DNA from: Bdellovibrionota bacterium
Lineage (GTDB): Bacteria; Bdellovibrionota_C; UBA2361; OMII01
Reading direction: 5' to 3'
NCBI GenBank assembly: GCA_044345405.1
Contig: JBIJBE010000043.1
Coordinates: forward strand, 1-29,481
Length of the DNA stretch: 29,481 nt
Shown here: positions 1 to 18,905 of the stretch, in pieces
Layout of the letters: each line of letters starts with the position of its first letter
Numbering within the stretch: the first letter of the stretch is position 1
Translations under genes and position numbers: made by a program
Notes under the pieces: generated by a model
Told to the model about the DNA's origin: nothing
Databases searched by the model: none
What the model saw: the letters and a program-made list of their open reading frames with translations, nothing else

Positions 1-839
1 TAGACAATTCCCTCAATCTCGTTAACGCGAGCGTCAGCACGAATCAAACCTCAAGTTTAAGTCTCTCCAACTCATCATCGAGCGTAGATAATAGCTTGAA
101 CATCGTGAACGCGAGTGTCAGCACCAATCAGACCTCAAGCTTACGTTTGTCGAACTCCTCTTCAAGTGTCGACAATTCGCTCAACCTGGTGAACGCGAGC
201 GTAAGTACAAATCAAACCTCTAGCTTACGTCTGTCGAACTCCTCCTCAAGCGTCGACAACTCGCTTAACCTCGTTAATGCGAGCGTCAGCACGAATCAGA
301 CCTCAAGCCTAAGCCTCTCAAACTCATCATCAAGCGTAGACAATTCACTTAACCTCGTTAACGCGAGCGTAAGCACCAATCAGACATCAAGCTTAAGCCT
401 CTCCAACTCCTCCTCGAGCGTTGATAATTCACTTAATCTCGTGAACGCTAGCATTAGCACCAACCAGACCTTTAGCCTTACCCTCTCCAACTCCTCGTCG
501 AGCGTTGATAACTCACTCAATTTGGTAAACGCGAGCGTCAGTACCAATCAAACCTCTAGCCTCAGGCTCTCGAACTCATCCTCAAGCGTTGATAATTCAC
601 TGAACCTTATTAACGCGAGCGTCAGCACCAATCAGACCTCGAGCTTGAGCCTTTCGAACTCATCTTCAAGCGTCGACAACTCACTCAATCTGGTCAACGC
701 GAGCGTGAGTACCAACCAGACCTCTAGCTTGAGCCTCTCAAACTCATCATCGAGCATCGATAATCGACTGAATATCGTCAATGCAAGTATTAGCACCAAT
801 CAAACATCGAGCCTGAGCTTATCGAACTCCTCCTCGAGC
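1..839 (+). repeat. Coding tandem repeat, 84-nt/28-aa unit (VDNSLNLVNASVSTNQTSSLSLSNSSSS), 10 copies in the window and probably more upstream
   Basis: Read directly. Units are nearly identical in amino acids but differ at many synonymous positions. A degenerate 11th unit follows (LDFELSDAAAKISSASLRVISLSSQSS). Confidence 0.97.
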
Positions 840-1616
840 TTGGACTTCGAACTCTCCGACGCCGCGGCGAAGATTTCGAGCGCTTCTCTCAGAGTTATCT
901 CTCTCTCATCCCAATCGAGTGAGGCGGGATTAGATATCGCCGGCGGGGAGACCATTCCGCGATACATTGAAACGTTAGAGGAACCACAACGTCTCATCCG
1001 GCAATTCATGTCCGCGCTTGAACTTGATTATTCGGACGAGTTATCAGCGGAGCTCTCCGACAGACGTATCCTTAATAGGCTCTACGAACTTCAGGGGCTC
1101 TTTAGTGGCGTGTCTCGTGCGACAGAATTAGTGGCAGAGATAGCGCAGGCGCGTGAAGGGATGCTTGCTGATAAGATGCGAGGCCTTAAGCTGCCGAAGT
1201 CCGATTCCCCGGACGAGCCGAAATCGGACTTTAGGTACGAGGTACTTCGCGCTATCCAGGAGCGCTTCGGTCTCTACGATCCAAACAATCCAACTGACGT
1301 GACCGACCGCTTTGATCCAGACTCGAATCTTCGAGTGGCACTCGGCGAGAATCTGCAGTTCCAAATGGGCAGCGACACCCTTTCAAGTCGAAACCAAGCC
1401 TTACCCCCACCTCGCACCGGGCTCTCCTCGACTCAACCGATCATTGACAACTACGGCCAGGGAGCCAGTCGGATCATATCGTCGGGACAAGCGGTGGTTC
1501 GTGAACTCGAAAATCGTGATGAGGCGAAGAGGGATCGTGATGAGGCGAAGAAGGACCGCGATAAGGACAAGACGGACGACCCCGACGACAGGCGGAGCGG
1601 CCGCTTTAGACGCTAG
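3..1616 (+). CDS. Ser/Asn-rich tandem-repeat protein, 5'-truncated by the window edge; putative glycosylated surface or secreted protein
   Basis: The frame is open from position 3 (DNSLNLVNASVSTNQ...), so the track's TTG at 96 is not the real start. Ten 28-aa repeats are followed by a unique acidic region and a charged RDEAK tail. No recognisable anchor or beta-barrel at the C-terminus. Confidence 0.85.
   Translation, partial: DNSLNLVNASVSTNQTSSLSLSNSSSSVDNSLNIVNASVSTNQTSSLRLSNSSSSVDNSLNLVNASVSTNQTSSLRLSNSSSSVDNSLNLVNASVSTNQTSSLSLSNSSSSVDNSLNLVNASVSTNQTSSLSLSNSSSSVDNSLNLVNASISTNQTFSLTLSNSSSSVDNSLNLVNASVSTNQTSSLRLSNSSSSVDNSLNLINASVSTNQTSSLSLSNSSSSVDNSLNLVNASVSTNQTSSLSLSNSSSSIDNRLNIVNASISTNQTSSLSLSNSSSSLDFELSDAAAKISSASLRVISLSSQSSEAGLDIAGGETIPRYIETLEEPQRLIRQFMSALELDYSDELSAELSDRRILNRLYELQGLFSGVSRATELVAEIAQAREGMLADKMRGLKLPKSDSPDEPKSDFRYEVLRAIQERFGLYDPNNPTDVTDRFDPDSNLRVALGENLQFQMGSDTLSSRNQALPPPRTGLSSTQPIIDNYGQGASRIISSGQAVVRELENRDEAKRDRDEAKKDRDKDKTDDPDDRRSGRFRR
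1513..1551 (+). repeat. 21-nt-period duplication encoding RDEAKRD/RDEAKKD
   Basis: ATCGTGATGAGGCGAAGA occurs at 1513-1530 and 1534-1551. Confidence 0.85.
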
Positions 1617-1704
1617 GGACGCCGACGCATCGTGCGCGCCCCTTCTATATATATAGTGTGGCCGCCGTGCGGATCTGCTAACCTCCTGTACTCGCTAGGC
1701 ACGC

Positions 1705-1732
1705 TCAAGATCTTATCTTCGCCTGCCGACAC
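1705..1732 (+). promoter_or_regulatory. Sigma28/FliA-like promoter for the methyltransferase gene
   Basis: TCAAG-N15-GCCGACAC, about 60 nt before the ATG at 1795. Same geometry as four other intergenic sites. Confidence 0.6.
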
Positions 1733-1794
1733 TACGTTACGAGAGTATATCGGGGATTGCCGTGCCGAAGCCCCGGACTTAACAATGGTTTTCT

Positions 1795-2526
1795 ATGGAT
1801 CATCCACTCTTCAAGGAACGCACCTTTAGAGACGCCTGTCAGAGCGTCGTGGGCCCGTGCAACGGTTTCACCTACCAGGAGCGATGGGAGAAGGAGACCC
1901 CCGATATGGTACGGGCGATCCTTAAGCAAACGGATGCCCCCTCTCCCCGCATCCTCGACTACGGATGCGGTGTCGGTCGGCTCGCCCGAGAGGTGATCAT
2001 GCAACACCCTTCGGCGACCGTTGTTGGCATCGATGAGTCTCCCGTTCAACAACAACACGCTCGCGATTACGTTGATAGCTCTCGATTCACCGCCTGCTTT
2101 CCCCATGAAGCAGATGGATCCTTTGACCTTATTTATTGCATCTACGTTCTTCAACACGTTCCAGCTCTAGACCTTCGGGGTGCCATAGCTCGAATCCATC
2201 ACCGACTCAAACCGGAGGGCCTGTTTGTCTACTGCTCAAGCGATACCCGTATGTCGGTACGTTGGGATAGCTTCTCGTTTTTTGACGATCGATTCTTGGG
2301 AGTCAATATTCGAGCGGAGATAGAAAAACTTTTTGAACCGGTGGGAGATCTCTTTGACAAGGAAACTCTTCGAGAGAATCCGCTACTCCATCGAATGATT
2401 CTCGGGGTAGACCCCGGACAGGACGGCATCGGCGTTACACCAACAGCGTTGGCCCATCCCGCCATAGTCTACAAGCCACGGCCGTACCGGGGGCAGTACT
2501 TTGATGTGCCGCCGATCCCTCGGTAA
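1795..2526 (+). CDS. Class I SAM-dependent methyltransferase
   Basis: Motif I RILDYGCGVGR, VVGIDES, SFDLIYCIYVLQHV and LKPEG. Confidence 0.9.
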   Translation: MDHPLFKERTFRDACQSVVGPCNGFTYQERWEKETPDMVRAILKQTDAPSPRILDYGCGVGRLAREVIMQHPSATVVGIDESPVQQQHARDYVDSSRFTACFPHEADGSFDLIYCIYVLQHVPALDLRGAIARIHHRLKPEGLFVYCSSDTRMSVRWDSFSFFDDRFLGVNIRAEIEKLFEPVGDLFDKETLRENPLLHRMILGVDPGQDGIGVTPTALAHPAIVYKPRPYRGQYFDVPPIPR

Positions 2527-2611
2527 CTCGAATTGACAGGGGAGCCTCTCCCGGGATCGAGATACGGCCGCGGTCGAGCCACGCCCGGGGCGAAATTTGA
2601 GGCGCTAAACT

Positions 2612-3814
2612 CTAGCTACTCGCGAACACCGCTCGCTCTCCTTGGGGAGACTTTGGTTTCGGCGCATCCTCATCCCGCTTCTTCTCAACCTGCGCGGTAA
2701 CGGGCTCAGGAGCCTTAGGGGGATCGTCATCATAAAAGTAGGCGCCACCATCAAAGTGAAGTTTTACCCGGTCAATAACCATCTTCACGGTGATCATATC
2801 GAGGCATTTGGGGATAACCCCTCCGCGACCTATCTGCACCGGCATCTCACAGAGCTGTTCGGGACTCCGCTCTAATCGGTGGCGAACCTCACACCGAGTT
2901 TTTCCGCATCCTCCGACCTCACAGCACGGAAGCATCCCATTGACGTGCAACACATGATGCCCCTCGTACGCGAACCACTGGTATGGCTCCTGGCCTCCGC
3001 TAATGACGACGGCGGCGCGGGAATTAGGGCGAGGCCTCCCATTTCGCTCAAAAGGACGGACCGGTGTAGCGGCGGCGAGATGCATGAGAAAGCCAGGGGC
3101 ACCCACATACCCGGCTGCGTGATACATGAGGCGAATGATCTGACGCAGATCGGTTTTACCCACCAGATCAATAACACCCTTAAGCCGTGGGTGATGCTCC
3201 CCCTCCAGTCCACACTGAACGAACGTTATCTTCCCTTTGAATTCATCCACCACCTTTTGGTATCGCTGTGGATCCCACCATTGCGAGCTCTGGGCATCTG
3301 GACCGCCAGTAACGATGATCCAGAAATTATTAAAGCTGTTCGCCTCCTCAACCTGCGACATCCATCCCCGTTCGATATCCGAGATCGTCACTACCCCTCG
3401 CATCTCGCCGATCGGTAAGAAGGCGGTCAATCCAAGTTTATTGGCGATGTCTTGACCGAACGCGTGAATTTGGTGGTACGAGTTAATATTTCGTAGCCGT
3501 TCAGAGGAGGGAAAGTGGCCCTTTTTCGAGCATACAACGACCTGAATCTCCGTATCATAACAGATAATCTTAGTTTGTTGTTCAGCGAAACCGTACTCGT
3601 TCGCCGCAAGCTCACTTTCACCATCCCAAGGCACAGAGCGCCAATCGAGGCGGGTGAGATGATTATTATAGTCCCATATCGGCATGCCTAGGGTGTGAAC
3701 ATCCACCTGATATCCCCCGTACGAGTGAACCTGCAGATCACGTACCGCGGCCGTCAACAAGAGGGCGTCCGTTAAACTGTCATAATTGACGAGTAGAATC
3801 TTTCGAACCGTCAT
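2612..3814 (-). CDS. GT9-family (ADP-heptose heptosyltransferase-like) glycosyltransferase with Cys-rich C-terminal motif; divergent paralog
   Basis: N-terminal SLTDALLLTAAVRDL, IDLVGKTDLRQIIRL, FLMHLAAA and LPCCEVGGCGKTRC...LC...KCLDMIT. Colinear with 6058-7701. Confidence 0.85.
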   Translation of the reverse strand: MTVRKILLVNYDSLTDALLLTAAVRDLQVHSYGGYQVDVHTLGMPIWDYNNHLTRLDWRSVPWDGESELAANEYGFAEQQTKIICYDTEIQVVVCSKKGHFPSSERLRNINSYHQIHAFGQDIANKLGLTAFLPIGEMRGVVTISDIERGWMSQVEEANSFNNFWIIVTGGPDAQSSQWWDPQRYQKVVDEFKGKITFVQCGLEGEHHPRLKGVIDLVGKTDLRQIIRLMYHAAGYVGAPGFLMHLAAATPVRPFERNGRPRPNSRAAVVISGGQEPYQWFAYEGHHVLHVNGMLPCCEVGGCGKTRCEVRHRLERSPEQLCEMPVQIGRGGVIPKCLDMITVKMVIDRVKLHFDGGAYFYDDDPPKAPEPVTAQVEKKRDEDAPKPKSPQGERAVFASS

Positions 3815-3822
3815 GGCCTCCC

Positions 3823-6033
3823 CTATCCCCCATGCTTCTGGAATACATCCAGAAGAAACTGCTCACACTCAGTAACTACCCTCTGATTAGAATAGAGAAC
3901 CGAACTCTTCTCAACGAGCTCCTTTCGAGTCGCCTCACGCAGATCGTTGTTACGTCCGAGCTCCACAGCGATGCGACAATAGTCATCGATATCTTGAGCA
4001 ATCAGGGATTCGACCCCCATATGCCGATAGCACGCGTAACTGATGCGGGCACGAAGGAATTCACTCGGCAGCGTGACTACCGGAGTCCCAAACGACAGTG
4101 CTTGAATAGTGGTGCTTCCGCCGCCAAAATGAATAGGATCAAGCATCACGTCGGCCATCTTAATCAAGCCGAGGAACCCCTCGTGCGACAATCGAGGAAT
4201 AAACCGAATACGATCCATGACACCGGGAACATTTCGCTGAAGGCGCTCTTTAATAAGTGTAGAGTGATGAGCGCAGGTCCCCTCAAGGAGCACAAGCTCA
4301 CCTTTCGGATCGCCCTCAAGTACGCCTTGGACGATGCGGTCGAAATCAGGATGAAATTTAAAGAGCGTCTGCGGACACATGTAGACGTTAGCGTCCGCTC
4401 CTACACCTAGAGAGTCTCGTGTCACAATCTCCCGCGCCTCGGGACGAAGGTAGTACGTATTCAGGGTATCAAGCTTTACGAGCTCCTCTGTGTAGTGATC
4501 CTGGGCGTGGGGCAACTCTAATTCCTTTGAGGACACGAAGTAATCAATCGTAGAGATCCCGGTAGTTAACGGATGCCCCCAGGTGGTGCATTGCACGGGA
4601 GCGAGCCTGTTAAAGGCGAGGAAGTAGGTTAATGGCTCCATCCCAAGGTCGGGATAGTACAGAATATCGAGCTCTTGACCCTGTATGACCTCACGAGCGG
4701 CCTTCATGTCAATCGGCAACCGAAACTCGTGATCTACCCGCTGAATGAGCGATTGGGGAATGCGGTGCGCCAACGGTTGTGTGTGGAAGAGGGATATCTC
4801 AAAACGATCTCTATCGAGACGGGCGAAGAGGTCTGCCCAGAGAATACCGATAGTGTGGAACGATAGGTGTCGGCTACAGATACCGAGCCGGATCTTTCCT
4901 TCACGTCGACGGCGACCGATATGTGGCGCTTCATACGTAAGAATGGGAGTGAACTGGCGAAATATATCCGCGGTCTTTTTCTGCAACTCGCGGTCGTTGT
5001 ACCCGTGGTACGCTAAGTAAAAGTTCGTCGAGCCAACCTGGCCTAAGGGATCCTCAATCGTGCCAGAATAGTTTTTAAGGTCGTCAAGAGCCGCATGCAA
5101 CTCCTCTCGGGTGCGTGTAATACCTTCATTCGACTCCATGATAGCGGGAATAATTAAAGCTTTGCGAACCCGAACGCCCATAGCTTTTGGGTCAATCTCG
5201 AGCAAATCGCCACAAAGTTTTTGAGCCTCCCGATATTGACCATCGTTGGCGAACACGCATGAAAGGTTTCCCTTCGCGTCAACATGCTTCGGATCAACCT
5301 CGATCGCCTTCTCATACGCGGCGATGGAGCGGGGGGTATCCGACATATCTCGGTAAAGACCTCCGATCTCATTCCACGCGTTCGCGTTGGTCGGCTCAAT
5401 TCGAACGGCTCGTTTAAGGATGGCGAGGGCCTCCATGTCCGTTCCCATCTCTCGAAACAATTTGGCTAAACTTCGATAGGCGTCAACGAGGGATGGTCGC
5501 TCCTTAATCGCCTCCATAAAGAGGGCTCGAGCGAGACCGAACTGTCGCTGTTCGAGATATACCGTGCCGAGATTATTCATCGCCTCAGCATAGTGAGGCT
5601 CTAGCTCTAAAGCCTTCTTAAAGCTCGTTTCAGCACCGGCCAGGTCCTCCGTACGTTGCTGTATCAGACCTAACGTTAACCACGCCTGATGCTGTCTTGG
5701 GTCGGTGGCCACACATCTGTCGAGCAGTTCCCCGGCCTCATCCAACTTTGAGGCGGAGTACAGTACTAAACCTAATCCTCTAAGGGCATTCACGTCCCGC
5801 GGATTGATCGCGAGCGCTTTCCGTAAAACCTCTTCACCTTCCCCAGATCGGTCGAGACGCCAATAGGAGAGGCCTAATCCAACAAGGGCATCTACCGAGA
5901 GAGGCTGGCCTTCCAGGATTAACTCAAACAAAGGAACAGCAACGTCGATGTCACCAACGTTATAGGCTCGCAGGGCTTGCTCCAGGGTCGCCGTGGTTTC
6001 TTTCGATGTTTGCGCAAGCGCCTTAGCGTTCAT
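3823..6033 (-). CDS. TPR-containing GT41-family glycosyltransferase (O-GlcNAc transferase/SPINDLY-like)
   Basis: About 8 N-terminal TPRs (AEAMNNLG, AWNEIG), then SRHLSFHTIG, RLAPVQCTTWGHPLTTGISTIDYF, CPQTLFKFHP and DVMLDPIHFGGGSTTIQALSFGTPVVTLP. Confidence 0.9.
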   Translation of the reverse strand: MNAKALAQTSKETTATLEQALRAYNVGDIDVAVPLFELILEGQPLSVDALVGLGLSYWRLDRSGEGEEVLRKALAINPRDVNALRGLGLVLYSASKLDEAGELLDRCVATDPRQHQAWLTLGLIQQRTEDLAGAETSFKKALELEPHYAEAMNNLGTVYLEQRQFGLARALFMEAIKERPSLVDAYRSLAKLFREMGTDMEALAILKRAVRIEPTNANAWNEIGGLYRDMSDTPRSIAAYEKAIEVDPKHVDAKGNLSCVFANDGQYREAQKLCGDLLEIDPKAMGVRVRKALIIPAIMESNEGITRTREELHAALDDLKNYSGTIEDPLGQVGSTNFYLAYHGYNDRELQKKTADIFRQFTPILTYEAPHIGRRRREGKIRLGICSRHLSFHTIGILWADLFARLDRDRFEISLFHTQPLAHRIPQSLIQRVDHEFRLPIDMKAAREVIQGQELDILYYPDLGMEPLTYFLAFNRLAPVQCTTWGHPLTTGISTIDYFVSSKELELPHAQDHYTEELVKLDTLNTYYLRPEAREIVTRDSLGVGADANVYMCPQTLFKFHPDFDRIVQGVLEGDPKGELVLLEGTCAHHSTLIKERLQRNVPGVMDRIRFIPRLSHEGFLGLIKMADVMLDPIHFGGGSTTIQALSFGTPVVTLPSEFLRARISYACYRHMGVESLIAQDIDDYCRIAVELGRNNDLREATRKELVEKSSVLYSNQRVVTECEQFLLDVFQKHGG

Positions 6034-6057
6034 AGTGCTACCGATATGCTCCGTACC

Positions 6058-7701
6058 CTATGGCTTCATGAAAATTAACTCTTTCCCCATCGAGCCGACA
6101 CGGTGAGTAACTCGCCGAATTCGATCCGTTTCATCCTTTAAAAGAGAAAGCCCGGCGTCCTGTAATCGCCCCTGCCATTCCTCTATCCATGCGGCGCCGG
6201 CATTTTTATTGTCGGCGGGTGGCATAAGAACGAGCACTCCTCCCTTCGCCAAATTGCTCACGATCGTGTCGGAAAGATTCTCGGCGGAGCGCCCCACATG
6301 ATTCGCGGCGCTTGCGGTTAGGATGAGGTCGTATTTCACCGGGCTCTTCCAATAGTCCCGCCCTAGATCACACATCGATATTCGCGAAACGGGAAGGTCC
6401 TCATCAAGCTCAACAATCTCGGTGTGTTCGCGAATACCATACAGGTCGACACCGCTCTTATGGAGAATCTTGATAAGCTCGGTCCGGTCACACCCGATAT
6501 CGAGCATCATTCGAGGTTGAAATCGGTCAAGGAGATATTTGGCTAACATACCACTCTCCCATTTCTCAATCTCAGGGTCTCGCTCTTCCAGTGAGTCGTG
6601 ATTGTTGTATCGAAGGAGGTCACCCTCGTAGTAGAGCGAGATCGACTCGCACACCATCTGAGGGGTAATCATGGTTTGGCACTTCCCTATTTGCAGGGTC
6701 TCGGAGACCTTAACGGGATAGGTACACAGGTTTTCGTCTTTGGGATCGTTGTCTCCTACCGGTTGGCACCGACTCTTCCAACATCCACCTCGAGTGCAAC
6801 ATGGAAGCGCCCCGACCGTGTGCATGAATTGGTGATGTGGGTAGGCCTCCCAGTGCATCGCCTCACGGCCCCCCGCCAAAACGATACAGGGCCGATTGGC
6901 TGGCAACTTGTTACCGTTTGCGTCAAAGGTCCTCATGGGGACCGCCGCGGCAAGGTGCATCGCAAAAGTAACTGGACAGATAACCCCGGTCGCGTGATGC
7001 ATCAAACGAATCAGTTGGCGCGCCGAAGTCTTACCGATCAGATTAACAACGCCCTCAAGTGGTGGATGGAAGTGAGATGGATCACCGCACTGCACGAAGA
7101 GAATGCGACCTTTGAAGTGGTCAACCACCGCTTGATATGAGTCAGGATTCCACCATTTGGCGGTGTAATCGTACTTTCCTCCTGAGAAGATCAACCAAAA
7201 GTTTTCGTGGATGCCGAGCTCCTGGACCTGGCTCATCCACAACTTCTCCTCGTGAGAGAGATGAATATCTCCCTTGAATTCAGTAACCGGCACCCTTACT
7301 CCGAGCTTCTGCTCTAGGTCTTGAGCGTACCCGTGAATAAAGTGATAGGCGTTCTGATTACTGCGATTAATTGAAGCTTGATAGTCACCGTCATACCCGC
7401 AGTCAAAAACCTCGATATCAGGGTCATCAACGATAATTTTAAGTTCACGCGCCGGGACGAGTCTCTCCCTCTCATTCTCCGGCTCGGTCTGATCGCCTAG
7501 CCTCTCCACCCGATAGGGAAGTCGGGTGATATATGGATTATGCTCCCAAATCTCTCCCACCGAGGTATAGACATCCGTGATAAATTCCCCAGGATGCGCT
7601 CTGTGAAGATCACGAACAGCGGACGTCATCATCATGATATCCCCCGGCGAGAGGAGATTGATCAGAAGAAGCTTTCGCTTTCGTGTAAGGATCTCAACCA
7701 T
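6058..7701 (-). CDS. GT9-family glycosyltransferase with Cys-rich motif, fused to a C-terminal methyltransferase-like domain
   Basis: SPGDIMMMTSAVRDL, GGKYDYTAKWW, NLIGKTSARQL, FAMHLAAA and LPCCTRGGCWKSRC...C...KCQTMIT. C-terminal MLDIGCD...YDLIL...LAKGGVLVL. Confidence 0.85.
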   Translation of the reverse strand: MVEILTRKRKLLLINLLSPGDIMMMTSAVRDLHRAHPGEFITDVYTSVGEIWEHNPYITRLPYRVERLGDQTEPENERERLVPARELKIIVDDPDIEVFDCGYDGDYQASINRSNQNAYHFIHGYAQDLEQKLGVRVPVTEFKGDIHLSHEEKLWMSQVQELGIHENFWLIFSGGKYDYTAKWWNPDSYQAVVDHFKGRILFVQCGDPSHFHPPLEGVVNLIGKTSARQLIRLMHHATGVICPVTFAMHLAAAVPMRTFDANGNKLPANRPCIVLAGGREAMHWEAYPHHQFMHTVGALPCCTRGGCWKSRCQPVGDNDPKDENLCTYPVKVSETLQIGKCQTMITPQMVCESISLYYEGDLLRYNNHDSLEERDPEIEKWESGMLAKYLLDRFQPRMMLDIGCDRTELIKILHKSGVDLYGIREHTEIVELDEDLPVSRISMCDLGRDYWKSPVKYDLILTASAANHVGRSAENLSDTIVSNLAKGGVLVLMPPADNKNAGAAWIEEWQGRLQDAGLSLLKDETDRIRRVTHRVGSMGKELIFMKP

Positions 7702-7865
7702 ACAAACGTAGTAGAACGCGATGGCGGCAAGGGATTCATTTCTCTCGCCGCGTTACACATCACTCGAACGTGAACAGCCACTTCACAACTACAACGTACG
7801 TCGGGAGAGGGCCCCCCGGGAGAATTCGGGGGACCCGTGCAGGGAAGGAACTCCCTGCACCTCTC

Positions 7866-7893
7866 ATATCGACAGTTTAGAGTCTGGGATTGA
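7866..7893 (-). promoter_or_regulatory. Sigma28/FliA-like promoter for the GT9-GT41-GT9 operon
   Basis: Minus strand reads TCAAT-N15-GTCGATAT. Confidence 0.55.
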
Positions 7894-7907
7894 GTGAAAA
7901 GTTTGGG

Positions 7908-7935
7908 TTAAGTCCTCGGAAAGTTTTGCCGACCC
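7908..7935 (+). promoter_or_regulatory. Sigma28/FliA-like promoter for the FkbM gene, back-to-back with the previous site
   Basis: TTAAG-N15-GCCGACCC. Confidence 0.55.
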
Positions 7936-7990
7936 TCTAGGTAGAAACAGCAAACAATTATCGTTGGATTATCAATGGGTTAGCCAATAT

Positions 7991-8731
7991 ATGGAGAGTG
8001 GAGAGGCAGACACCATTGAGGTTGAGGGCCAAGGGAAGCGATACACCGTTACCTTCGCCAACTCCCATAACGTCCGCGACCACCTTCTCGAGGTGCTATT
8101 CGGCAACGCCTACGTCCTTCCGAGGAGTGGCACCTTAAAGCCGAAACAGATAATCGACGTCGGGGCGAATGTTGGAGCATCCGCGATCTTTCTTCGACAC
8201 AACTATCCGAACGTACCGATCGTCTGCTACGAACCGGCCGTAGACAACCTCGCCTTTCTTCGCCTTAACGCCAAACAGGCGGAGCCGATCGAGATAGTTC
8301 CGTGTGGCTTAGCGGAGCGAAGCGGTACAGCTCGCCTTTACCATGGGGTTCTGTTTCAACTTCAAAACTCGATCTACCCAAGTCGAGAGACTGATTCGAG
8401 TACGTACGAGGAGATTCAGGTTCTCGAAGCGGGCAAAGAGCTTGAATCTAGGATCGTACCGGGGACACTGCTTAAAATGGACACCGAGGGTTGCGAACTT
8501 GAGATCCTTCGGTCAATTACCAACCGTCTCAACGACCTGGCCATCATCTTTCTTGAGTTTCACAGCGAGTCGGAGCGCCGTGAGATAGACAGGATTCTTG
8601 AGTCCACGCATACCCTTTTCTCCGGGAAGATAACGGATCCACATCGAGGAACGTTGGGGTATATCCACTCAGAAACCCTTCGCCAACATCCCGATATAAG
8701 CTGGCTCGAGATACGACACGGTAAAAACTAG
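7991..8731 (+). CDS. FkbM-family methyltransferase
   Basis: IIDVGANVG, CYEP, LKMDTEGCE and LEFH. ATG 7991 chosen; TTG 7964 is an alternative start. Confidence 0.88.
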   Translation: MESGEADTIEVEGQGKRYTVTFANSHNVRDHLLEVLFGNAYVLPRSGTLKPKQIIDVGANVGASAIFLRHNYPNVPIVCYEPAVDNLAFLRLNAKQAEPIEIVPCGLAERSGTARLYHGVLFQLQNSIYPSRETDSSTYEEIQVLEAGKELESRIVPGTLLKMDTEGCELEILRSITNRLNDLAIIFLEFHSESERREIDRILESTHTLFSGKITDPHRGTLGYIHSETLRQHPDISWLEIRHGKN

Positions 8732-9906
8732 GCGGCACCTCGCCGATGTCCGGGCATGCGAATATGTCTCCCCACACAACGCACCAAGGTCTGAGACCTA
8801 TCGAAGGCGAAGATCCATCCACCGTAGAGCTGATACCGCTCTCCTTTGACTCCGAAACGCTCTACTGAGCTCTTAATCTTGTGAAACTCGATCGGCTGAG
8901 AGAGTTGGTACCACTGCGAGAACTTTTCAAAACACTCAGGCGCGGTAAAGAATCCTTGAAAGCGCTCTCGAGCGTCACGCGTGCGACGAACTCCCTCCTC
9001 GAACTCCGCGAACGCTCGGGCGTGAACCGAGCGACGTTTCCCAAATACCTCGTAAAATCCCATCAAATCGCGGTGTTTTGGCGTTAATTTAAAAGACCCC
9101 ACCTTCTCTCGTGGAGCCCGAACAAGCTCGGCTCGAAGGAACCCACTGAGGTTACGCCCACTCAGCTCAATCGTTCGAAGCAAGGTCCCCTTCTCCTCGA
9201 CGAACATGAACTTGCCCGCCATACGGATATTTTTACTCTTCGAATTCTTTACATCGTAGGGAACCACGATCGGAAAGGTCCGCGGGATAGGTCGAGCGCG
9301 TCGAATAAGGGAGACGAGGAGTTTTAAAGATCCGGCGAGGGTACGAAGCGCCTCAGGATATCGGCGTTCAACGAATCGAGAATCCTTAATCAGAGCGGCG
9401 AAGTCTCGAACGACCTTCTCGTGAACAACGATGACGGCGCGTCGTGCCGTTATATGAAACTCCAAACCGAACTTGCCTTGGCGCGCCTCTACTTTAGGTA
9501 TCTTTGAGATACTTGGGTCGGCCGGATGAATATAGCTCTCTCCGGAGAGAAGTGAGCCGAGGTAGTATGGGAGCCCGAACTGTTGCGGATTCGAGATGGG
9601 CACAGGGGCGACGAATCCAACGAGGACGTTCTTTCCCTCTACGAGGTAGTGTTTTACCGGGTCCCTTCCCTCGAAGAGCCATTGAAAGCTCTTCTCGGGA
9701 GACTTATGCGCCTCTCCGTGACTCTCTTTCTGAATCCACGATTGATAATGCTCGACCAAAGCTGAGACAGCGCGCTCATCGATGAAGATGCCCTTCGAGA
9801 TAACTCGTAGGGACAGGAGCATCTCCTGAGCCCCCTTGTGCCCCTTCAAAAAAACTAGAAATGCTGTGAGCTGGGACCGCTCATCGGTCCGCGCCTGCTC
9901 TGTCAT
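8728..9906 (-). CDS. Hypothetical basic protein, 392 aa, with three apparent internal domain repeats
   Basis: Long ORF with AAGGAG RBS upstream of the ATG. No family recognised with confidence. Confidence 0.8.
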   Translation of the reverse strand: MTEQARTDERSQLTAFLVFLKGHKGAQEMLLSLRVISKGIFIDERAVSALVEHYQSWIQKESHGEAHKSPEKSFQWLFEGRDPVKHYLVEGKNVLVGFVAPVPISNPQQFGLPYYLGSLLSGESYIHPADPSISKIPKVEARQGKFGLEFHITARRAVIVVHEKVVRDFAALIKDSRFVERRYPEALRTLAGSLKLLVSLIRRARPIPRTFPIVVPYDVKNSKSKNIRMAGKFMFVEEKGTLLRTIELSGRNLSGFLRAELVRAPREKVGSFKLTPKHRDLMGFYEVFGKRRSVHARAFAEFEEGVRRTRDARERFQGFFTAPECFEKFSQWYQLSQPIEFHKIKSSVERFGVKGERYQLYGGWIFAFDRSQTLVRCVGRHIRMPGHRRGAA

Positions 9907-9986
9907 GGCCCGCTCCTTGCCGCGTCAACGTTTATGCGAGCATATACCGAGACCTCTCGGCGGTGGTAGTGCGAAGAACGGGACAT

Positions 9987-10017
9987 AAAAAAAGCCGCCG
10001 CGGTTTCCCGCGACGGC
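9987..10017 (-). terminator. Rho-independent terminator of nrdAB
   Basis: Minus strand GCCGTCGCGG-GAAA-CCGCGGCGGC-TTTTTTT, 28 nt after the nrdB stop. Confidence 0.9.
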
Positions 10018-11161: not shown

Positions 11162-14100
11162 CTACTGACAGCTCTCACAATCACCATCAAGTCCGCACAC
11201 CTTAGGAACCTCCGCCTTAGCGGCGGTCTCCGCTACCGGTTTGCGCTCAACAACAACTTCACTTGACGCTGACTTGTTCTTCATCCATCGAGGCTGAAGA
11301 CCTCGGCGGTTGATGTCTGTCGTCGACTTCTCAATCTGCGTAGCTCCAAGCGAACGGAGGTAGTACGTGGTCTTAAGTCCCTTCGTCCAAGCCTGCATGT
11401 ACATGTCGTTCAACTTCTTACCGCTCGGTTGAGCCATGTAGAGATTGAGAGACTGTCCCATGTCGATCCACTTCTGACGACGGCTACCACACTCGATCAA
11501 CCACTCAGGCTCGATCTCGAACGCTGTGAGGTAGATCTTCCGAAGGTCCTCTGGAATCCGCTCAATCTCTTGAATGGACCCATCGAAGTACTTCAGGTCA
11601 TCGATCATGTCCTCATCCCAGAGGTCAAGAGCCTTGAGCTCGTCAACCAGGAAGGTGTTATGAACGATGAACTCTCCCGACAAGTTGGACTTAGCGTAGA
11701 GGTGCTTATAGTTCGGCTCGATAGACTGACTCACTCCGGTAATGTTGGAGATAGTCGCTGTCGGCGCAATCGCCATGGTGTTGCTGTTGCGCATGCCGTT
11801 ATTCTTAACCGCCTCACGTACGACCTTCCAGTCGAGTGTGGATGAGCGATCAACCTCAAGGTTTCCGCCACGCTCCTCCTCAAGGACCTTAAGCGTATCG
11901 ATCGGAAGCAATCCACGATCCCACTTCGACCCCTTGTAACTTGAGTACGCTCCCTTCTCCTGCGCGAGCTCGGTTGAAGCGAGAATCGCGTAGTACGAAA
12001 TGGCCTCCATACTCTCGTCCGCGAACTTCACAGCCTCTGGACTCGCGTAGCTGATGCGTTGAGCATACAACGCGTCTTGAAAGCCCATGAGTCCGAGACC
12101 AATCGGTCTGTGTCGGAGGTTAGCAGTTTTGGCTTCTGCTGTCGGGTAAAAGTTGATGTCGATGACGTTATCCAACATGCGGACCGCTGTTCGCACCGTC
12201 TTCTCGATTCCCGCTCGATCAAGCCCGTCTTTGCTTACGAACTTCACGAGATTAATAGAACCGAGGTTGCACACAGCGGTCTCTTCTGGAGAGGTGTTGA
12301 GCAAGATCTCTGTGCAGAGATTCGAGCTGTGCACCACTCCAACGTGATCCTGTGGCGAGCGAAGGTTCGATGGATCCTTGAAGGTGATCCAAGGGTGACC
12401 TGTCTCGAACAACATGCTGAGCATCTTTCGCCAGAGAGCCACAGCCTCGATCTTCTTGTGAAGCTTAAGCTCTCCGCGCTCAGCCTTCTTCTCGTACTCA
12501 ACGTAACGCTCCTCGAACTTCTTACCGTAGAGGTCGTGAAGATCTGGAACATCACTTGGGCTGAAGAGTGTCCAGGTGCCGTTAGCGGCCACACGCTTCA
12601 TGAAGAGGTCTGGAATCCAGTTAGCCGTATTCATGTCGTGCGTACGACGACGCTCGTCACCGGTGTTCTTACGGAGCTCAAGGAAGTCCTCGATATCCAA
12701 GTGCCATGACTCAAGGTACGCGCACATCGCGCCCTTTCGCTTACCGCCCTGGTTAACGGCGACAGCGGTGTCGTTCGCGACTTTAAGGAATGGGATAACG
12801 CCCTGACTGCGTCCGTTCGTTCCCTTAATGCGAGAACCAGTAGCGCGCACGTTCGTCCAGTCGTTACCAAGTCCTCCAGCCCACTTCGAGAGCTGCGCGT
12901 CGTCAGCGACACACTTGAAGATGTGCTGAAGATCGTCGGCGATCGTGGTGAGGTAGCAGGAGCTCAATTGCGGGTGCAACGTTCCAGCGTTGAAGAGGGT
13001 CGGCGTACTTGAGGTGAACACGCACCGCGAGAGTACATCGTAGAACTCGATAGCTCGCTCGTTCTTCTGAGCGCCCTCGTTGACGCTCAATCCCATCGCG
13101 ACTCGCATCCAGAAGATCTGTGGAGTCTCAAGGCGAATATCCTCGTGGTGGATGAGGTAACGATCGTAGAGGGTCTGAAGTCCAAGGTATTGGAACTCAA
13201 AATCTCGATCGAGCTTGAGAGCCTGTCCAAGCTTGTTGAGATCGAACTCAAGCAGCTTAGGATCCATACGCTCTACCGAAACCGCCTTCTTGAGGCAGTC
13301 CTTGAAGTATTGCTGATGAGCCTTATCAAGCTTGGCGCTATGAGCGTCAACGCCCATCGTCTCACGATAGATGATGTCGAGGAGCAATCGAGCCGCTACA
13401 TAAGAGTAGGCTGGGTCCTTCTCGATCTTCGCGCGAGCGGCCATGATGATAGCTTGGTCAACTTCCTCAAGCTTGATCCCCTCGTAGAAGTTGCGAACAG
13501 CCTCTTGAAGAACCTCTTCGCTCGACGCGATAGACTCCAAGCCCTTACAGGCGTGAACGATACGCTTGCGAAGCTCTCCCTCCGAGAGGTCGATCTGTGT
13601 GCCTTCCTTTGTTACTGCCTTGAAGACGGTTCCAGGAGCGACCTCAACGACCGCCTCTGTTGTCTCCTCGGTCTCGCCCTCTACTTCACGCTGCGCCGCG
13701 CGAGTCGAACGATAGAGAATGAAATCCTTAGCCACCTGATAGAAGCCCGACGCCATCATCTCACGCTCAACTTCATCCTGGATGAGCTCGATATCGACCT
13801 GCGTGCCAGCCGCTGAGAGCGCGACCACTCGAGCGACCACTTTATCGGTGAGCGCGTTGACGTTAGCGATGGTCTCGCCTGGTGTCTGACCCTCGATCTT
13901 GAGGGAGGCCCGGAAGGCGCTCTCGATAGCCGAGGCGATCTTCATCGGGTTGAAACGAACCAGTGTCTTCCCGTCACGTCGAAGGACCTTGATGTTACGA
14001 GGAGAGTCCTCGCGGGTAGCCTTCTGCTCATTTCGGTAGATAATGTAGTTACGACCAACATCGAAGTACCCACCCTTAACGAGCTTCACCTCAACAAGGT

Positions 14101-14434
14101 CCTGAATCCCCTCTACGGTTACGCACGCGCCCTTCCCGGCCTCCAGAGCGACAGCCTGAGCAACCTGCTCGGTAAGGCTTTGAACTACCGTGAGAAGCTC
14201 CTGCGGAAGGGGGGTCCCCTCAGCGATATCTTTCGTAGCTCGAAACGCCAGCTCAATAGCGCGAGCGATGCGCTCCTTGCGGAAAGGGACGAGCGAACCG
14301 CTTCGCTTTACGACCGTGATAGAGTTAAGGTCTACCGTTCGCACACCCTCTTCTTGGGTAGCGCCAGTTGCCGCCAACATACCGTTAATACTCTTTTTTC
14401 CGCCTACTTCTGAGCCACTCGATGCTACCGTCAT
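11162..14434 (-). CDS. nrdA: Ribonucleotide reductase class I alpha subunit with three N-terminal ATP-cone domains
   Basis: [40 protein letters not shown] and C-terminal CESCQ. Cones begin at VVKRSG, VLRRDG and VTKEG. Confidence 0.96.
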
Positions 14435-14570
14435 ACGCCTCTTAATCCCTCGCTACCTACGCACTCCTTAGCCAATTCCAGACAACACGAATCCCGTTCG
14501 CCTAAATAGGCGTTCTCAAAAATCGCTATGCCATACCACCTAATGTGAAGATTAGTATTTGGGGGCCTTC

Positions 14571-14618
14571 CTACTATATATAGTAGCCGCCCAGGGAACT
14601 AACTACAATATATATGTA
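14571..14618. promoter_or_regulatory. Tandem NrdR boxes upstream of nrdA
   Basis: Perfect 16-bp palindrome CTACTATATATAGTAG (14571-14586) fits acaCwAtATaTwGtgt. A degenerate second copy CTACAATATATATGTA starts 32 bp later, the usual NrdR-box spacing. Confidence 0.8.
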
Positions 14619-15072
14619 TGAGTAACTCCCACCTGCTGTCTACCTGAAATATGCTGGGTGCGACAAAAAAAAACCCTTCCGCACCTAACACCTTATAACA
14701 ACAAGAGCCACGACTTTGAGACCGCGTTTTTATAGCAGCATCACATACCGCCTTCAACGAAAATCGACTCAACAGGTCGACCTAACAATCTATTTTTATT
14801 GATTTTATTTTCAACGACCCTCAAAAACCTCTTGCTTTCCAAATGGCGTTAGAGCAGCCACCGTCATGCTGGAGTCTCATTCGCGAAGCGGTCCAAAAAG
14901 CTCGTCATCAGCTGCGTCACAGATCACTTTCAGGCGCGCGATACGATGAACTCGGAAAAAGCCTCAGAAATGGGGCTCTTTCAGCGATCACGAGAACCTG
15001 CTCCTGACCGCAATCCGAGCGACGTTCGCGACATGACGACGAACATCCCTATCTTGAGCTTATTTTTCGGGC

Positions 15073-15435
15073 TTATTTGGAGAGTCTTTGGCTCTGCGCT
15101 TCAAGAGAATCGACCTCTCGCTCGATCTCACGTAATGAATCATCGCTGGTTGGTGTCGTGGGCGCATGTGCTGTTGCCACCGTCGTAGGCGTGCTGGACG
15201 CCACATCCGCTATCGCCACATCCTTGAAGATCTCATTTTTCAGCGATTTTTCGGCGGTATTCTTGAACTCGCCAAGATCCTGACCCGCGTCCGCGAACGC
15301 GCTATTCTCACTGACCTCAAGATCATCAGCTAAGAGCGTTGTGTCGTCCGCCTCCTGCCCGTACGCGCTCGATGCCAATATAAGGCCGAAAAACAACACT
15401 CCCAGTATCTCGATTCCTCTCTGCGCGGTTCTCAT
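15073..15435 (-). CDS. Hypothetical small acidic exported protein
   Basis: ATG 15435 follows GAGGTG. Signal-peptide-like N-terminus (MRTAQRG...LILASSAYG/QEA) and a coiled-coil-like C-terminus. Confidence 0.7.
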   Translation of the reverse strand: MRTAQRGIEILGVLFFGLILASSAYGQEADDTTLLADDLEVSENSAFADAGQDLGEFKNTAEKSLKNEIFKDVAIADVASSTPTTVATAHAPTTPTSDDSLREIEREVDSLEAQSQRLSK

Positions 15436-15583
15436 GCGTCGTGCCACCTCAAACATATCTCGCTGCGGCGACCGTAGCATCAACGACAAAAAAGGTCGCC
15501 ACGAAATCGGCACTCGCCATGAAACAACGGTTTTTCATGGCTTATCACTTGAAAACCCACTCAACTAATCGCATCGTACCGAC

Positions 15584-17561: not shown

Positions 17562-17667
17562 ACTCACGTTCCTATCCCGTCAATACATTCGACGAGGTCG
17601 TATCAATACGTTATATAGAGTCCGTTGCGCTACAAGTAGCACATTCATGCTTTTTAGCCGCAAAAAG

Positions 17668-17695
17668 TAATGCTTTTTCGTATCTCGGCCGATCT
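17668..17695 (+). promoter_or_regulatory. Sigma28/FliA-like promoter
   Basis: TAATG-N15-GCCGATCT, 32 nt before ATG 17728. Confidence 0.5.
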
Positions 17696-17727
17696 TGGGA
17701 AACGAAAGGGAGCGGGTACGTACCCAT

Positions 17728-18723: not shown

Positions 18724-18804
18724 GGCTAAGCCCTCAAGAGCAGTTTGTTATATTAACCAAACATTCGCTCGCCGGCAAAAACATGCATTTCATACCGCAA
18801 CCAA

Positions 18805-18834
18805 TTGACATAAACCACAAACGCAGAGTATACG
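18805..18834 (+). promoter_or_regulatory. Possible sigma70 promoter of the feo operon
   Basis: Perfect TTGACA at 18805-18810, with TATACG 18 nt later (weak -10). Confidence 0.4.
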
Positions 18835-18905
18835 AATAAACAGGCGTTCGGGATTGTCGCCTGGCAGATTGAGATACATATCTGCCATAACTAACGGAAA
18901 CCACT

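Follow-up and report, generated by a model that had tools for sequence, protein, structure and literature searches.

A diderm bacterium of the Bdellovibrionota type, a lake member of the Bdellovibrio group, encodes a very long, serine-rich, probable coiled-coil protein beside a conserved set of sugar-adding and methyl-adding enzymes, a combination without earlier description. We think it fairly likely that these genes form a dedicated module for cytoplasmic O-glycosylation and methylation of a giant coiled-coil fibre, with GT9-like enzymes acting directly on serines. The window (the whole 29,481-nucleotide stretch that was analysed) opens inside the fibre gene, as the P0001 reading frame (3-1616, plus strand) is open at the window edge and truncated 5′. 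Residues 1-280 (3-842, plus strand) are an array of ten 28-residue units, followed by a non-repeat C-terminal region of about 257 residues (843-1616, plus strand) without known family. Directly 3′ on the same strand lies P0002 (1795-2526), a class I SAM-dependent methyltransferase. A minus-strand enzyme operon, convergent with the fibre gene, encodes first the GT9b-methyltransferase fusion P0005 (6058-7701), then the OGT-like TPR-GT41 protein P0004 (3823-6033), and last GT9a, the divergent Cys-rich GT9-fold glycosyltransferase P0003 (2612-3814). Divergent from the operon is P0006 (7964-8731, plus strand), an FkbM-family methyltransferase. Open reading frames and family profile matches bear out the genes and positions given in a preliminary description of this DNA, as well as its remark that no export gene is visible; the profile scan of the window found none adjoining the cluster.

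Tandem Repeats Finder recovered an 84-nt unit in 10.0 copies (positions 3-839), and the repeat part is 36.8% Ser and devoid of Pro, Gly and Lys, in agreement with the ten serine-rich repeats described earlier. The ten units are more alike as protein (92% identity) than as DNA (78%), third codon positions account for 665 of 846 pairwise differences, and synonymous differing codon pairs outnumber non-synonymous ones by 603 to 103, which indicates a coding repeat under purifying selection. Full-length relatives were searched for and none was found, every copy being open at its 5′ end, including one at a related locus that already exceeds 3,061 residues. The C-terminal region opens with a short neck of heptad-like character, continues with two conserved motifs and ends in a charged tail. 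It matched no Pfam family, an ESM Atlas search gave no usable match, and its nine relatives among 1.84 billion representatives are all fragments of at most 399 residues.

The architecture of the repeats favours a giant coiled-coil fibre over a beta-helical passenger. Motif spacings are 28 residues throughout the window repeats (9/9), 21 or 28 residues at 113 of 114 positions in P0127, and multiples of seven in P0128 (11/11) and P0129 (25/26). The Fourier power of hydrophobic residues in the repeat region is concentrated at periods of 3.5 and 7.0, with almost none at 2.0 or 3.6, and proline is missing from all 2,780 residues of P0127. It is this conjunction of 21/28-residue units, 3.5/7 periodicity and absent proline that suggests the coiled coil. 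The best PDB matches of an alignment profile of the C-terminal region are the coiled-coil parts of trimeric fibres, reovirus sigma-1 (6gaj, E=0.0015) and P22 gp26 (4lin, E=0.022). Since the heptad register continues through the units almost without a break, the protein most likely forms a parallel coiled-coil rod with a length of several hundred nanometres, in which hydrophobic and Asn/Ser core positions would face inward and the serine runs would face solvent. Serine and asparagine, both of low helix propensity, make up about half of the repeat residues, as might be expected if the repeat were instead a flexible, mucin-like disordered chain or a beta-rich fibre that is still glycosylated. Known bacterial hyperglycosylated substrates are likewise disordered (SRRPs) or beta-helical (AIDA-I and TibA; PMC4358343, in the sections cited here). 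We nevertheless judge such a structure unlikely, given the strict multiples of seven, hydrophobic power at 3.5 and 7 with none at 2.0, the lack of proline and the coiled-coil fibres among the best profile matches; a solenoid in particular would not be expected to accommodate 21- and 28-residue units combined freely.

The repeat protein and the enzymes travel together. A five-gene core of repeat protein, methyltransferase, GT9a, GT41 and GT9b-MT is syntenic in five Bdellovibrionota-type MAG loci, as judged by tblastn in L001, L002 and L003 and by tblastn with translation in L004 and L005, the repeat protein of L004 being read from translation and the L005 core extending only as far as the contig reaches. 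Enzyme identities across related loci range from 30% to 78%. Orthologues of P0002 (47-78% identity) adjoin a Ser-rich gene in L001-L006, and those of P0005 (60-72%) occur in L001-L004, the L001 copy being partial (69% over 312 residues). The flanks vary: an RNR gene in the window and L002, a sigma factor and a Methyltransf_24 gene in L003, and two carbamoyltransferases and a GT2 gene in L004. A reduced form in L006 comprises GT9b, a methyltransferase and a complete 783-residue protein of about 20% Ser, the C-terminus of which aligns weakly with the window C-terminal domain (E=3e-4). The preliminary description had proposed synteny as a test of whether acceptor and enzymes belong together, and the outcome, one conserved unit in five loci with varied flanks, supports that they do. 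No LPS-core or flagellin genes were seen among the neighbours scanned at 23 loci.

The two Cys-rich GT9 paralogues proposed at the outset also hold up. P0003 and P0005 are 41% identical, with 9 cysteines in the 400 residues of P0003 and 11 in the GT9 part of P0005. The latter combines a GT9 fold (about residues 1-370) with a SAM-methyltransferase-like domain (about 385-547) and scores 28.9 bits against Glyco_transf_9 (PF01075), above the cut-off of 22. P0003 falls below that cut-off at 19.7 bits, and its AF2 model (pLDDT 91.7) has best Foldseek matches that are all GT9: 3tov, WaaF (1psw), TibC (4rap/4rb4) and WaaC. A profile of 95 family members had no match among PDB sequences at E≤1. Cys297, Cys303, Cys322 and Cys337 of P0003 are invariant in 95/95 sequences, and alignment and model place this cluster within a C-lobe insertion, recalling the Cys4 metal (iron) finger inserted in the C-lobe of TibC (PMC4358343, in the parts cited). 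The resemblance to TibC goes little further. The P0003 model matches TibC with a TM of about 0.45-0.5, no better than it matches the LPS enzymes WaaF and WaaC, sequence similarity is negligible (E=0.19, 54 residues aligned), and the cysteine spacing differs, the aligned offset probably putting only two cysteines near those of TibC. The N-terminal beta-barrel, beta-hairpin thumb and dodecamer of TibC were not recognised in these enzymes, which are known from sequence and model. The GT9-like enzymes have a GT9 fold and are not TibC/AAH members. GT9a and GT9b form one clade (SH-aLRT 98) in which GT9a, sister to GT9b, sits on a stem branch of 1.21 changes per column; this topology and long stem fit duplication and specialisation within this lineage.

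Distant relatives of the GT9-like enzymes occur in Acidobacteriota, Vulcanimicrobiota/Eremiobacterota, Planctomycetota and Armatimonadota, and there too serine-rich neighbours are common. Counting ORFs that reach 35% Ser or more over some stretch of 60 residues, we found 21 of 159 within 4 kb of a GT9-like gene and 1 of 111 farther away (Fisher p=1.5e-4), on a crude ORF caller and phylogenetically non-independent loci. The enrichment persists when the window and L001-L006 are left out (15/114 near, 1/89 far; p=1.2e-3). Eleven of 17 distant loci carry a Ser-rich ORF, although in high-GC genomes some small ones may be wrong frames, as the counted L021 ORF appears to be. The neighbours scanned include methyltransferases either fused to the GT9-like gene or next to it, namely Methyltransf_24 in L009, L010, L012 and L013, and FkbM in L022; an HldE-like gene (E=1e-125) adjoins it in L011, one of 23 loci. 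The Ser-rich ORFs beside these distant relatives are Asn-poor, with no GT41 seen nearby. The preliminary description had GT41 priming the protein and the GT9s extending the sugar; that order is not supported, and the occurrence of Ser-rich neighbours without GT41 favours direct action of the GT9-like enzymes on the protein.

These associations bear on whether the enzymes instead build or modify a non-protein glycan (LPS core, capsule or a small-molecule glycoside), the repeat protein being a mere neighbour. GT9 is best known for LPS heptosyltransferases, to which the P0003 model is as similar as to TibC, and the methyl- and carbamoyltransferases and GT2 of related loci are typical of polysaccharide tailoring. 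We regard this as improbable, however, because the repeat gene keeps its place in five loci despite changing flanks, because Ser-rich ORFs are enriched beside the clade in other phyla, and because neither the window nor the neighbours scanned contained lipid-carrier, flippase, polymerase, export or LPS-core genes. In addition, all TPR-GT41 enzymes with known substrates act, to our knowledge, on proteins, with which the PDB matches of P0004 are consistent.

P0004 has an N-terminal TPR superhelix of about 290 residues and a C-terminal GT-B catalytic domain; with 71.6 bits against Glyco_transf_41 (PF13844, cut-off 25) and matches to many TPR families, it is the TPR-GT41 that had been claimed. Its closest solved relatives are the OGTs of Thermobaculum terrenum (5djs, E=1e-21) and human (E=1e-19), with weaker matches to XcOGT (E=9e-17) and the NGTs (E=3e-14). 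A His and a Lys, which we take to be catalytic, coincide with conserved residues of human OGT. By its profile matches, P0004 is classed as OGT-like and not NGT-like, with 60 bits against the NCBIfam NGT model for a cut-off of 1000, which makes glycosylation at N-X-S/T less likely. The question arises because 30 of 50 Asn in the window repeats (three sequons per 28-residue unit) and 172 of 291 in P0127 stand in N-X-S/T, each unit shows one or more N-x-S sequons in all lineages read, and NGTs are themselves GT41 members detectable from P0004. The main modification would then be N-linked, with the GT41 working like HMW1C/NGT and the GT9-like enzymes extending the sugar. The repeats had been called sequon-saturated, which is numerically true and mostly explained by composition: about 60% of Asn are in sequons where S+T make up about 44-46% of residues, a modest excess. 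Strong conservation at Asn positions could reflect either a structural role in the core or N-glycosylation, and one conserved Asn falls on a predicted heptad core position in the register assigned here, which offers a structural explanation for its conservation. Moreover, we know of no NGT with a TPR domain, and the GT9-like relatives beside Ser-rich, Asn-poor ORFs have no GT41 nearby. N-linkage is accordingly doubtful in our view, and we retain O-linkage to serine as the probable modification.

The preliminary description counted three methyltransferase domains. Two are clear: P0002 matches Methyltransf_23/25/12/11 (E=1e-16 to 6e-13, Methyltransf_23 being best at 1e-16), and P0006 matches TIGR01444 (75.3 bits) and PF05050 (31 bits). 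The third, at the C-terminus of P0005, matches Methyltransf_23 weakly and below the cut-off (E=8e-4). P0006 is an accessory gene outside the conserved core, because L002 has the RNR gene immediately next to GT9b-MT; tblastn across 23 loci found no match to it. A promoter motif said to be common to the three enzyme units was not found. The best candidate 8-mer has three copies for 0.55 expected, a count equalled in 3 of 100 shuffles; one copy lies inside the RNR gene, and the equivalent intergenic regions of related loci lack the 8-mer. A sigma-70 scan gave 3 sites for 6.8 expected, none intergenic, and no repeat family links the intergenic regions.

Several known systems resemble parts of this locus. 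The first idea of a dedicated acceptor stands insofar as the repeat protein forms a conserved unit with the enzymes; it does not stand as an AIDA/TibA-like beta-helical passenger or a Gram-positive SRRP. AIDA-I/AAH and TibA/TibC likewise pair a soluble GT9-fold enzyme with a repetitive protein encoded beside it, whose serines the known enzymes hyperglycosylate; here, however, the substrate would be a heptad-repeat protein without an autotransporter domain, and two paralogues are joined by a GT41 and methyltransferases. The Gram-positive SRRPs (GtfA/B, accessory Sec) share a very long Ser-rich repeat protein beside glycosyltransferase genes. GtfA/B are GT4-type, in contrast to the GT9-like and GT41 enzymes here, SecA2/SecY2 genes are absent from the window of this diderm, and the 21/28-residue heptad-phased units differ from short dipeptide-like SRRs. 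Thermobaculum terrenum OGT, Xanthomonas XcOGT and eukaryotic OGT/SPINDLY have the same TPR superhelix and GT41 GT-B domain and include the best solved relatives. For these bacterial enzymes we know of no dedicated adjacent repetitive substrate, whereas the P0004 gene is flanked within its operon by two GT9-like genes and converges on the gene of a giant candidate substrate. Cytoplasmic glycosylation of very long Ser-rich repeats by enzymes encoded beside them, followed by export, is described for SRRPs in the cited sections of PMC6973325, PMC7661464 and PMC5578698. HMW1C, similarly, is a cytoplasmic GT41 whose gene accompanies that of its substrate, a large adhesin modified at numerous sites (PMC3012730, in the part cited); a GT41 is also encoded with a large candidate substrate here, but P0004 falls short of the NGT model and the window has no two-partner secretion gene.

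As fibres, reovirus sigma-1 tail, P22 gp26 tail needle and trimeric autotransporter adhesin stalks share Ser/Asn/Thr/Gln-rich heptads and polar core layers with the repeat protein. The likeness is one of repeat character only; the array is far longer (>2,780 residues in P0127), and a viral context, head or anchor domain was not recognised. The same phylum also has long surface fibre proteins, the mosaic adhesive trimer (MAT) fibres of Bdellovibrio bacteriovorus, which serve prey recognition. MAT fibres form beta-prism trimers, carry a Sec signal peptide and have a conserved domain at the N-terminus, in an account whose main text does not contain the string 'glycosyl' (PMC10769870, in the parts cited). 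They differ from the coiled coil predicted here, and no sequence relation to them was seen.

We therefore propose, as the probable reading, that soluble cytoplasmic enzymes would decorate the serines of this fibre before its export or assembly, possibly at the cell surface. The GT9-fold paralogues with a Cys4 cluster, GT9b and the fast-evolving GT9a, would transfer a sugar, probably heptose from ADP-heptose, directly onto serines. The OGT-like TPR-GT41 would hold the repetitive substrate with its TPR domain and add a second kind of O-linked sugar, and the SAM methyltransferases (P0002, the GT9b fusion domain and lineage-specific extras such as FkbM) would methylate the sugars.

Positions 1-8731 of the window hold six genes, and the families of the window proteins were assigned with Pfam and NCBIfam models. 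The Ser-rich repeat protein P0001 (3-1616, plus strand) is encoded by an ORF still open at the 5' window edge and comprises ten 28-aa repeats followed by ~257 non-repeat residues. The next gene on the same strand (1795-2526) encodes P0002, a class I SAM methyltransferase. Convergent with this pair lies a three-gene operon on the minus strand, composed of P0005 (GT9b fused to a methyltransferase-like domain; 6058-7701), P0004 (TPR-GT41; 3823-6033) and P0003 (GT9a; 2612-3814), and the gene for the FkbM methyltransferase P0006 (7964-8731, plus strand) diverges from it. A promoter motif common to the enzyme units, proposed in the preliminary description, was not reproduced in the window. Outside this region the window consists of unremarkable bacterial chromosome, with genes for ribonucleotide reductase, HtrA, an alpha/beta hydrolase, FeoB, NAD synthetase and an RND efflux pair, and Rfam and tRNA scans of the window returned no RNA family and no tRNA gene. 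Between the GT9b-MT and FkbM genes, positions 7798-7865 contain G+C-rich palindromic stretches that include a near-perfect hairpin of ~24 nt. A 392-aa ORF on the minus strand (8728-9906) is convergent with the FkbM gene, its end overlapping the FkbM stop by 4 nt; it has no Pfam or NCBIfam match and no usable ESM Atlas match. The large subunit of the ribonucleotide reductase (11162-14434, minus strand) is 1,090 aa long and shows three N-terminal ATP-cone stretches in Pfam, an unusually long regulatory region.

Relatives of P0003 numbered 717 at E<=1e-3 among 4,145 candidates. The closest share 54-87% identity; the more distant ones, many of them from Planctomycetes, are annotated as GT9 or 'ADP-heptose:LPS heptosyltransferase'. 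When the close relatives were aligned and the alignment was searched against one genome per species, 23 loci emerged, six of which (L001-L006) come from MAGs labelled Bdellovibrionota or 'delta proteobacterium'. The order GT9b-MT, GT41, GT9a, followed by the convergent methyltransferase and repeat-protein genes, was found in L001, L002, L003 and L004 by tblastn and translation, and L005 has the same five-gene order as far as its contig extends. The preliminary description had proposed homologous clusters beside repeat ORFs as a check, and this conserved order favours a functional unit. The flanks consist of a ribonucleotide reductase gene in L002, as in the window, of a sigma factor and a Methyltransf_24 gene in L003, and of two carbamoyltransferases and a GT2 in L004; the tailoring enzymes seem to differ from lineage to lineage. 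The L004 carbamoyltransferases are of the NodU/CmcH type and precede the enzyme operon together with the GT2 (265-5140, plus strand); the same locus has a 213-aa ORF of no known family between GT41 and GT9a (9354-9995, plus strand). Neither FkbM nor the 392-aa ORF of the window has a counterpart in any of the 23 loci, which makes both accessory genes. L006 represents a reduced form with GT9b lacking the fusion, the methyltransferase and a complete 783-aa protein of ~20% Ser (P0130), in which no obvious signal peptide was seen by eye and whose C-terminus aligns weakly (E=3e-4) with the C-terminal domain of the window repeat protein.

Within P0001, TRF delimits an 84-nt unit in 10.0 copies. The units are 92% identical as protein versus 78% as DNA, third codon positions hold 665 of the 846 pairwise differences between them, and differing codon pairs are synonymous in 603 cases versus 103 non-synonymous. 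The repeat is real; it is translated and under strong purifying selection, and is no recent product of slippage. Ser makes up 36.8% and Asn 17.5% of the repeat part, which is devoid of Pro, Gly and Lys; 30 of its 50 Asn residues stand in an N-X-S/T context. Across lineages the unit is 21 or 28 aa. In P0127, the giant repeat protein of L003, which is at least 3,061 aa long with its 5' end still open, 113 of the 114 spacings between unit-boundary motifs are 21 or 28, the remaining one being a +1 shift. The same two spacings account for 9/9 in the window and for 11/11 and 25/26 in P0128 and P0129, the repeat proteins of other related loci.

Over a stretch of 2,780 residues of P0127, hydrophobicity had a Fourier power of 444 at a period of 3.5 and 335 at 7.0, against 0.1 at 2.0 and 0.3 at 3.6, and proline is absent from that stretch, so that the repeat protein combines the long-range heptad hydrophobic periodicity and the lack of helix breakers looked for in a coiled-coil fibre. 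In a heptad register that is our own assignment, 28-mer positions 4, 7, 11, 14, 18, 21, 25 and 28, which have a/d spacing, are L, V, V, N, S, L, S and V. Trimeric coiled coils in viral fibres and adhesin stalks have similar polar layers of Asn and Ser in their core. When a profile of the C-terminal region and last repeats was compared with the PDB, the tail of reovirus sigma-1, a coiled coil (E=0.0015), and the tail needle of P22 (E=0.022) matched best. On the strength of the heptad spacing, the 3.5 and 7.0 periods, the complete lack of proline and these coiled-coil matches, we read the repeat protein as a putative, very long coiled-coil rod. As a coiled coil rises ~0.15 nm per residue, 2,780 residues would give a rod of roughly 400 nm. 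A homotrimer prediction with three copies of residues 141-400 (repeat and neck), in which the fold of the partner itself was uncertain, scored 0.00 against a mark of 0.42 and weighs neither for nor against a trimer. In the L003 repeat protein (11959-21144, minus strand), one heptad phase runs through 59 units and a second through 56, with the single 22-residue spacing between them; this +1 shift is like a coiled-coil skip. In L005 (1650-5006, minus strand), a Ser-, Tyr- and Gly-rich non-repeat stretch several hundred residues long separates two 21-aa repeat arrays, which suggests a globular or hinge domain inside the rod.

The C-terminal domain of the repeat protein carries two conserved motifs and yielded no known family in Pfam and no usable match in the ESM Atlas; neither the domain nor the repeat protein as a whole matched an autotransporter or other Pfam family. 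An exhaustive phmmer search of 1.84 billion representative proteins returned just nine matches to the domain, all of them fragments, so the family appears rare and never fully assembled. Word-based searches for full-length relatives found none, neither when proteins of 941-2,685 aa were searched with the C-terminal domain nor when proteins of 1,683-5,357 aa were searched with the P0127 C-terminus. A flagellin identity, considered from the likeness by eye of the C-terminal motif and the P0130 N-terminus to flagellin termini, was rejected. Fifteen C-terminal domains gave no Pfam match at E<=10 to Flagellin_N, Flagellin_C or related domains, and no flagellar protein was among the PDB matches of the C-terminal-region profile or of P0130 searched with phmmer.

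The two GT9-like proteins of the window share 41% identity over 361 residues, and against Pfam PF01075 (cut-off 22) P0005 scores above the threshold at 28.9 bits and P0003 below it at 19.7 bits. The best score with NCBIfam heptosyltransferase models was 17 bits against cut-offs of 135-467. A structural model of P0003 built from 18 close homologues was poor (pLDDT 51.7) and was discarded; a 95-sequence alignment raised the pLDDT to 91.7. Among the Foldseek matches listed for this model, ranks 1-29 are all GT9 (E 8e-9 to 9e-6; 3tov, 1psw, 4rap/4rb4, 6dfe and 2gt1/2h1h/2h1f), and other GT-B families begin at E=2e-3. The best structural matches are a Veillonella GT9, WaaF, TibC and WaaC, with TM scores of ~0.45-0.5. 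P0003 is thus modelled as a GT-B fold closest to solved GT9 enzymes, a fold that by itself does not separate LPS-directed from protein-directed enzymes. In sequence, the GT9-like family appears distant from all solved GT9 enzymes: phmmer of P0003 against the PDB reached TibC at E=0.19 over 54 residues, short of recognisable sequence homology, P0005 did not match TibC there, and the family profile found nothing in the PDB at E<=1.

Four cysteines (Cys297, 303, 322 and 337) are invariant in 95/95 GT9-like sequences, with Cys298 present in 93/95 and Cys308 in 82/95, and in the P0003 model the cluster lies within a structured insertion towards the C-terminal end of the C-lobe. The TibC account (PMC4358343) describes an iron finger of Cys 339, 342, 358 and 370, an insertion in the catalytic domain that caps the C-lobe and is required for oligomerisation and substrate recognition. 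The likeness of the Cys4 cluster to this finger is suggestive, though the spacing differs. A quick ML tree of 26 rows omits L021 and L022, whose GT9 gene was split into two tblastn pieces, the partial GT9b of L001 and the metagenome proteins P0007-P0126, and in two of its rows, L003_a and L011_x, which ran past a stop, the stop was masked as X. In this tree GT9a and GT9b of the Bdellovibrionota group together in a single clade (SH-aLRT 98) and the GT9a stem measures 1.21 changes per column; the single clade and long stem suggest a lineage-specific duplication followed by rapid change.

P0004 contains both a GT41 and a TPR part, scoring 71.6 bits with PF13844 (cut-off 25) and matching several TPR families at E<=1e-20. 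Its PDB relatives include 5djs (E=1e-21) and human OGT (E=1e-19), and NGT structures match more weakly at E=3e-14; the NGT equivalog model NF049992 gave 60 bits against a cut-off of 1000. By sequence comparison, this GT41 appears nearest to the bacterial and eukaryotic OGTs. Aligned with human OGT, the His of the N-lobe motif, the C-lobe Lys and a Thr-Thr pair are identical, and the catalytic role of individual residues among these is our presumption. The C-terminal methyltransferase domain of P0005 is a weak match (E=8e-4).

We also examined what surrounds the GT9-like gene in the 17 distant loci. Methyltransf_24 is its fusion partner or direct neighbour in L009, L010, L012 and L013, and FkbM takes this place in L022. 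In L011 the GT9-like gene is preceded on its own strand, at a distance of 75 nt, by a bifunctional HldE-like gene for heptose kinase/adenylyltransferase (3-1823, plus strand; E=1e-125, 419.7 bits, short of the 521-bit cut-off), the sole and indirect pointer to ADP-heptose as the donor. No heptose-pathway genes were found in the window, and no LPS-core genes among the 73 neighbours scanned around the GT9-like genes of the distant loci. Ser-rich ORFs, defined as holding at least 35% Ser in some 60-aa window, were counted with a simple ORF caller that allows no overlaps. In the window and all loci taken together they make up 21/159 of the ORFs within 4 kb of a GT9-like gene versus 1/111 of those farther away (p=1.5e-4); when the window and L001-L006 are set aside the counts are 15/114 and 1/89 (p=1.2e-3), the caller being crude and related genomes not independent. 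A Ser-rich ORF of this type is present in eleven of the 17 distant loci, and small ones in high-GC DNA may be wrong frames, as that of L021 looks to be.

These neighbours are of several kinds. In Acidobacteriota (L013, L014) they are membrane proteins with long poly-Ser linkers, in Vulcanimicrobiota/Eremiobacterota (L018-L020) a peptidase M15 and an esterase-like protein whose N-terminal stretches are acidic and Ser-rich, in Planctomycetota (L008, L009, L012) small ORFs at the same relative position in all three, and in Armatimonadota (L016) one protein. Because Ser-rich neighbours recur in several phyla without a nearby GT41, we think that protein serines are direct targets of the GT9-like enzymes, and for the same reason we do not follow the order of the preliminary description, in which GT41 primes and the GT9s extend. 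The GT9-like gene is much longer in the Acidobacteriota loci. It encodes 891 aa in L013 (4249-6924, plus strand), where a GT9 match and a Methyltransf_24 domain accompany the GT9-like domain of the clade, and 608 aa in L014 (9236-11062, plus strand), and in both it adjoins the Ser-rich membrane protein and zinc-ribbon/RDD proteins. The peptidase M15/esterase-like proteins, which start with an acidic, low-complexity stretch rich in Ser and Asp (L018 3298-4281, L019 8019-9955 and L020 7433-8656, plus strand), are encoded directly upstream of the GT9-like gene. A large Ser/Thr kinase-nSTAND protein is encoded within ~3 kb of that gene in L008, L009, L012 and L021 of the Planctomycetota, with an FGE-sulfatase domain on the same protein in L009 and L012 and on a separate adjacent ORF in L008; this neighbourhood may be simply shared ancestry.

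In its layout the window system resembles AIDA/AAH, TibA/TibC, SRRP/GtfAB and HMW1/HMW1C, in each of which a single giant repetitive substrate is encoded next to its cytoplasmic glycosyltransferases. It belongs to none of these families. Sequence homology of TibC/AAH (BAHT) to the window GT9-like enzymes is not recognisable, and the Cys spacing differs. The BAHT substrate is an autotransporter passenger with a beta-helix and a C-terminal translocator, whereas the window repeat protein has no such domain and shows heptad rather than beta periodicity. In Gram-positive SRRP/aSec systems, export genes and GtfA/B stand beside the SRRP; no SecA2/SecY2/Asp export genes or GtfA/B were found among the 22 window ORFs scanned or the neighbours scanned in L003, L004 and L006. 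The window GT41 stays far from the model cut-off for an HMW1C-like NGT. In the portion of the open-access literature covered by our search, neither a GT9+GT41 cluster nor a Ser-rich coiled-coil glycoprotein of Bdellovibrionota was described.

On balance, we favour a dedicated glycosylation system with the repeat protein as its acceptor, and each mechanistic detail is offered with less assurance than this core. From the gene content, synteny, folds, periodicity and neighbourhood enrichment shown here, we infer the following steps. The rod protein would be synthesised in the cytoplasm, where GT9b and GT9a would place a sugar, probably heptose, on its solvent-facing serine runs. The TPR-GT41 may hold the repetitive chain and add a second O-linked sugar, and the sugars could then be methylated by P0002, whose gene always adjoins that of the substrate, and by the domain fused to GT9b. 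Lineage-specific extras (FkbM, Methyltransf_24, carbamoyltransferases and GT2) might vary the glycan, and the coated rod would then be assembled, or exported by some route. A wider reading, speculative and in our estimate less likely than not as a whole, would make the Cys4 GT9-like enzymes and their partner SAM methyltransferases a phylum-spanning, unrecognised group of soluble protein serine (methyl-)heptosyltransferases. They would decorate Ser-rich stretches of many kinds of protein, as an autotransporter-independent bacterial counterpart of mucin-type O-glycosylation. Under the same joint proposal, one Bdellovibrionota lineage would have duplicated the GT9-like enzyme, gained an OGT-like GT41 and turned a coiled-coil rod of >400 nm into a sugar-coated 'bottle-brush' fibre.

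To our knowledge, dedicated hyperglycosylation of one giant substrate is restricted to a few bacterial systems, the four named here, almost all of them from pathogens. The module would add an example from the environment. Its substrate architecture, a heptad-perfect coiled coil thousands of residues long with 37% Ser, would be new, as would its enzyme combination of two GT9-fold paralogues and an OGT-like GT41. It would also offer a testable natural substrate for a bacterial OGT homologue, a class largely without one. The repeat could be used to model coiled coils with polar cores and to scaffold glycans in a dense, regular display. The Ser-rich ORF and methyltransferase neighbours of the GT9-like enzyme in four other phyla may outweigh this single system, and if the neighbourhood pattern holds, they would point to a large family of protein O-glycosyltransferases now annotated as 'ADP-heptose:LPS heptosyltransferase'.
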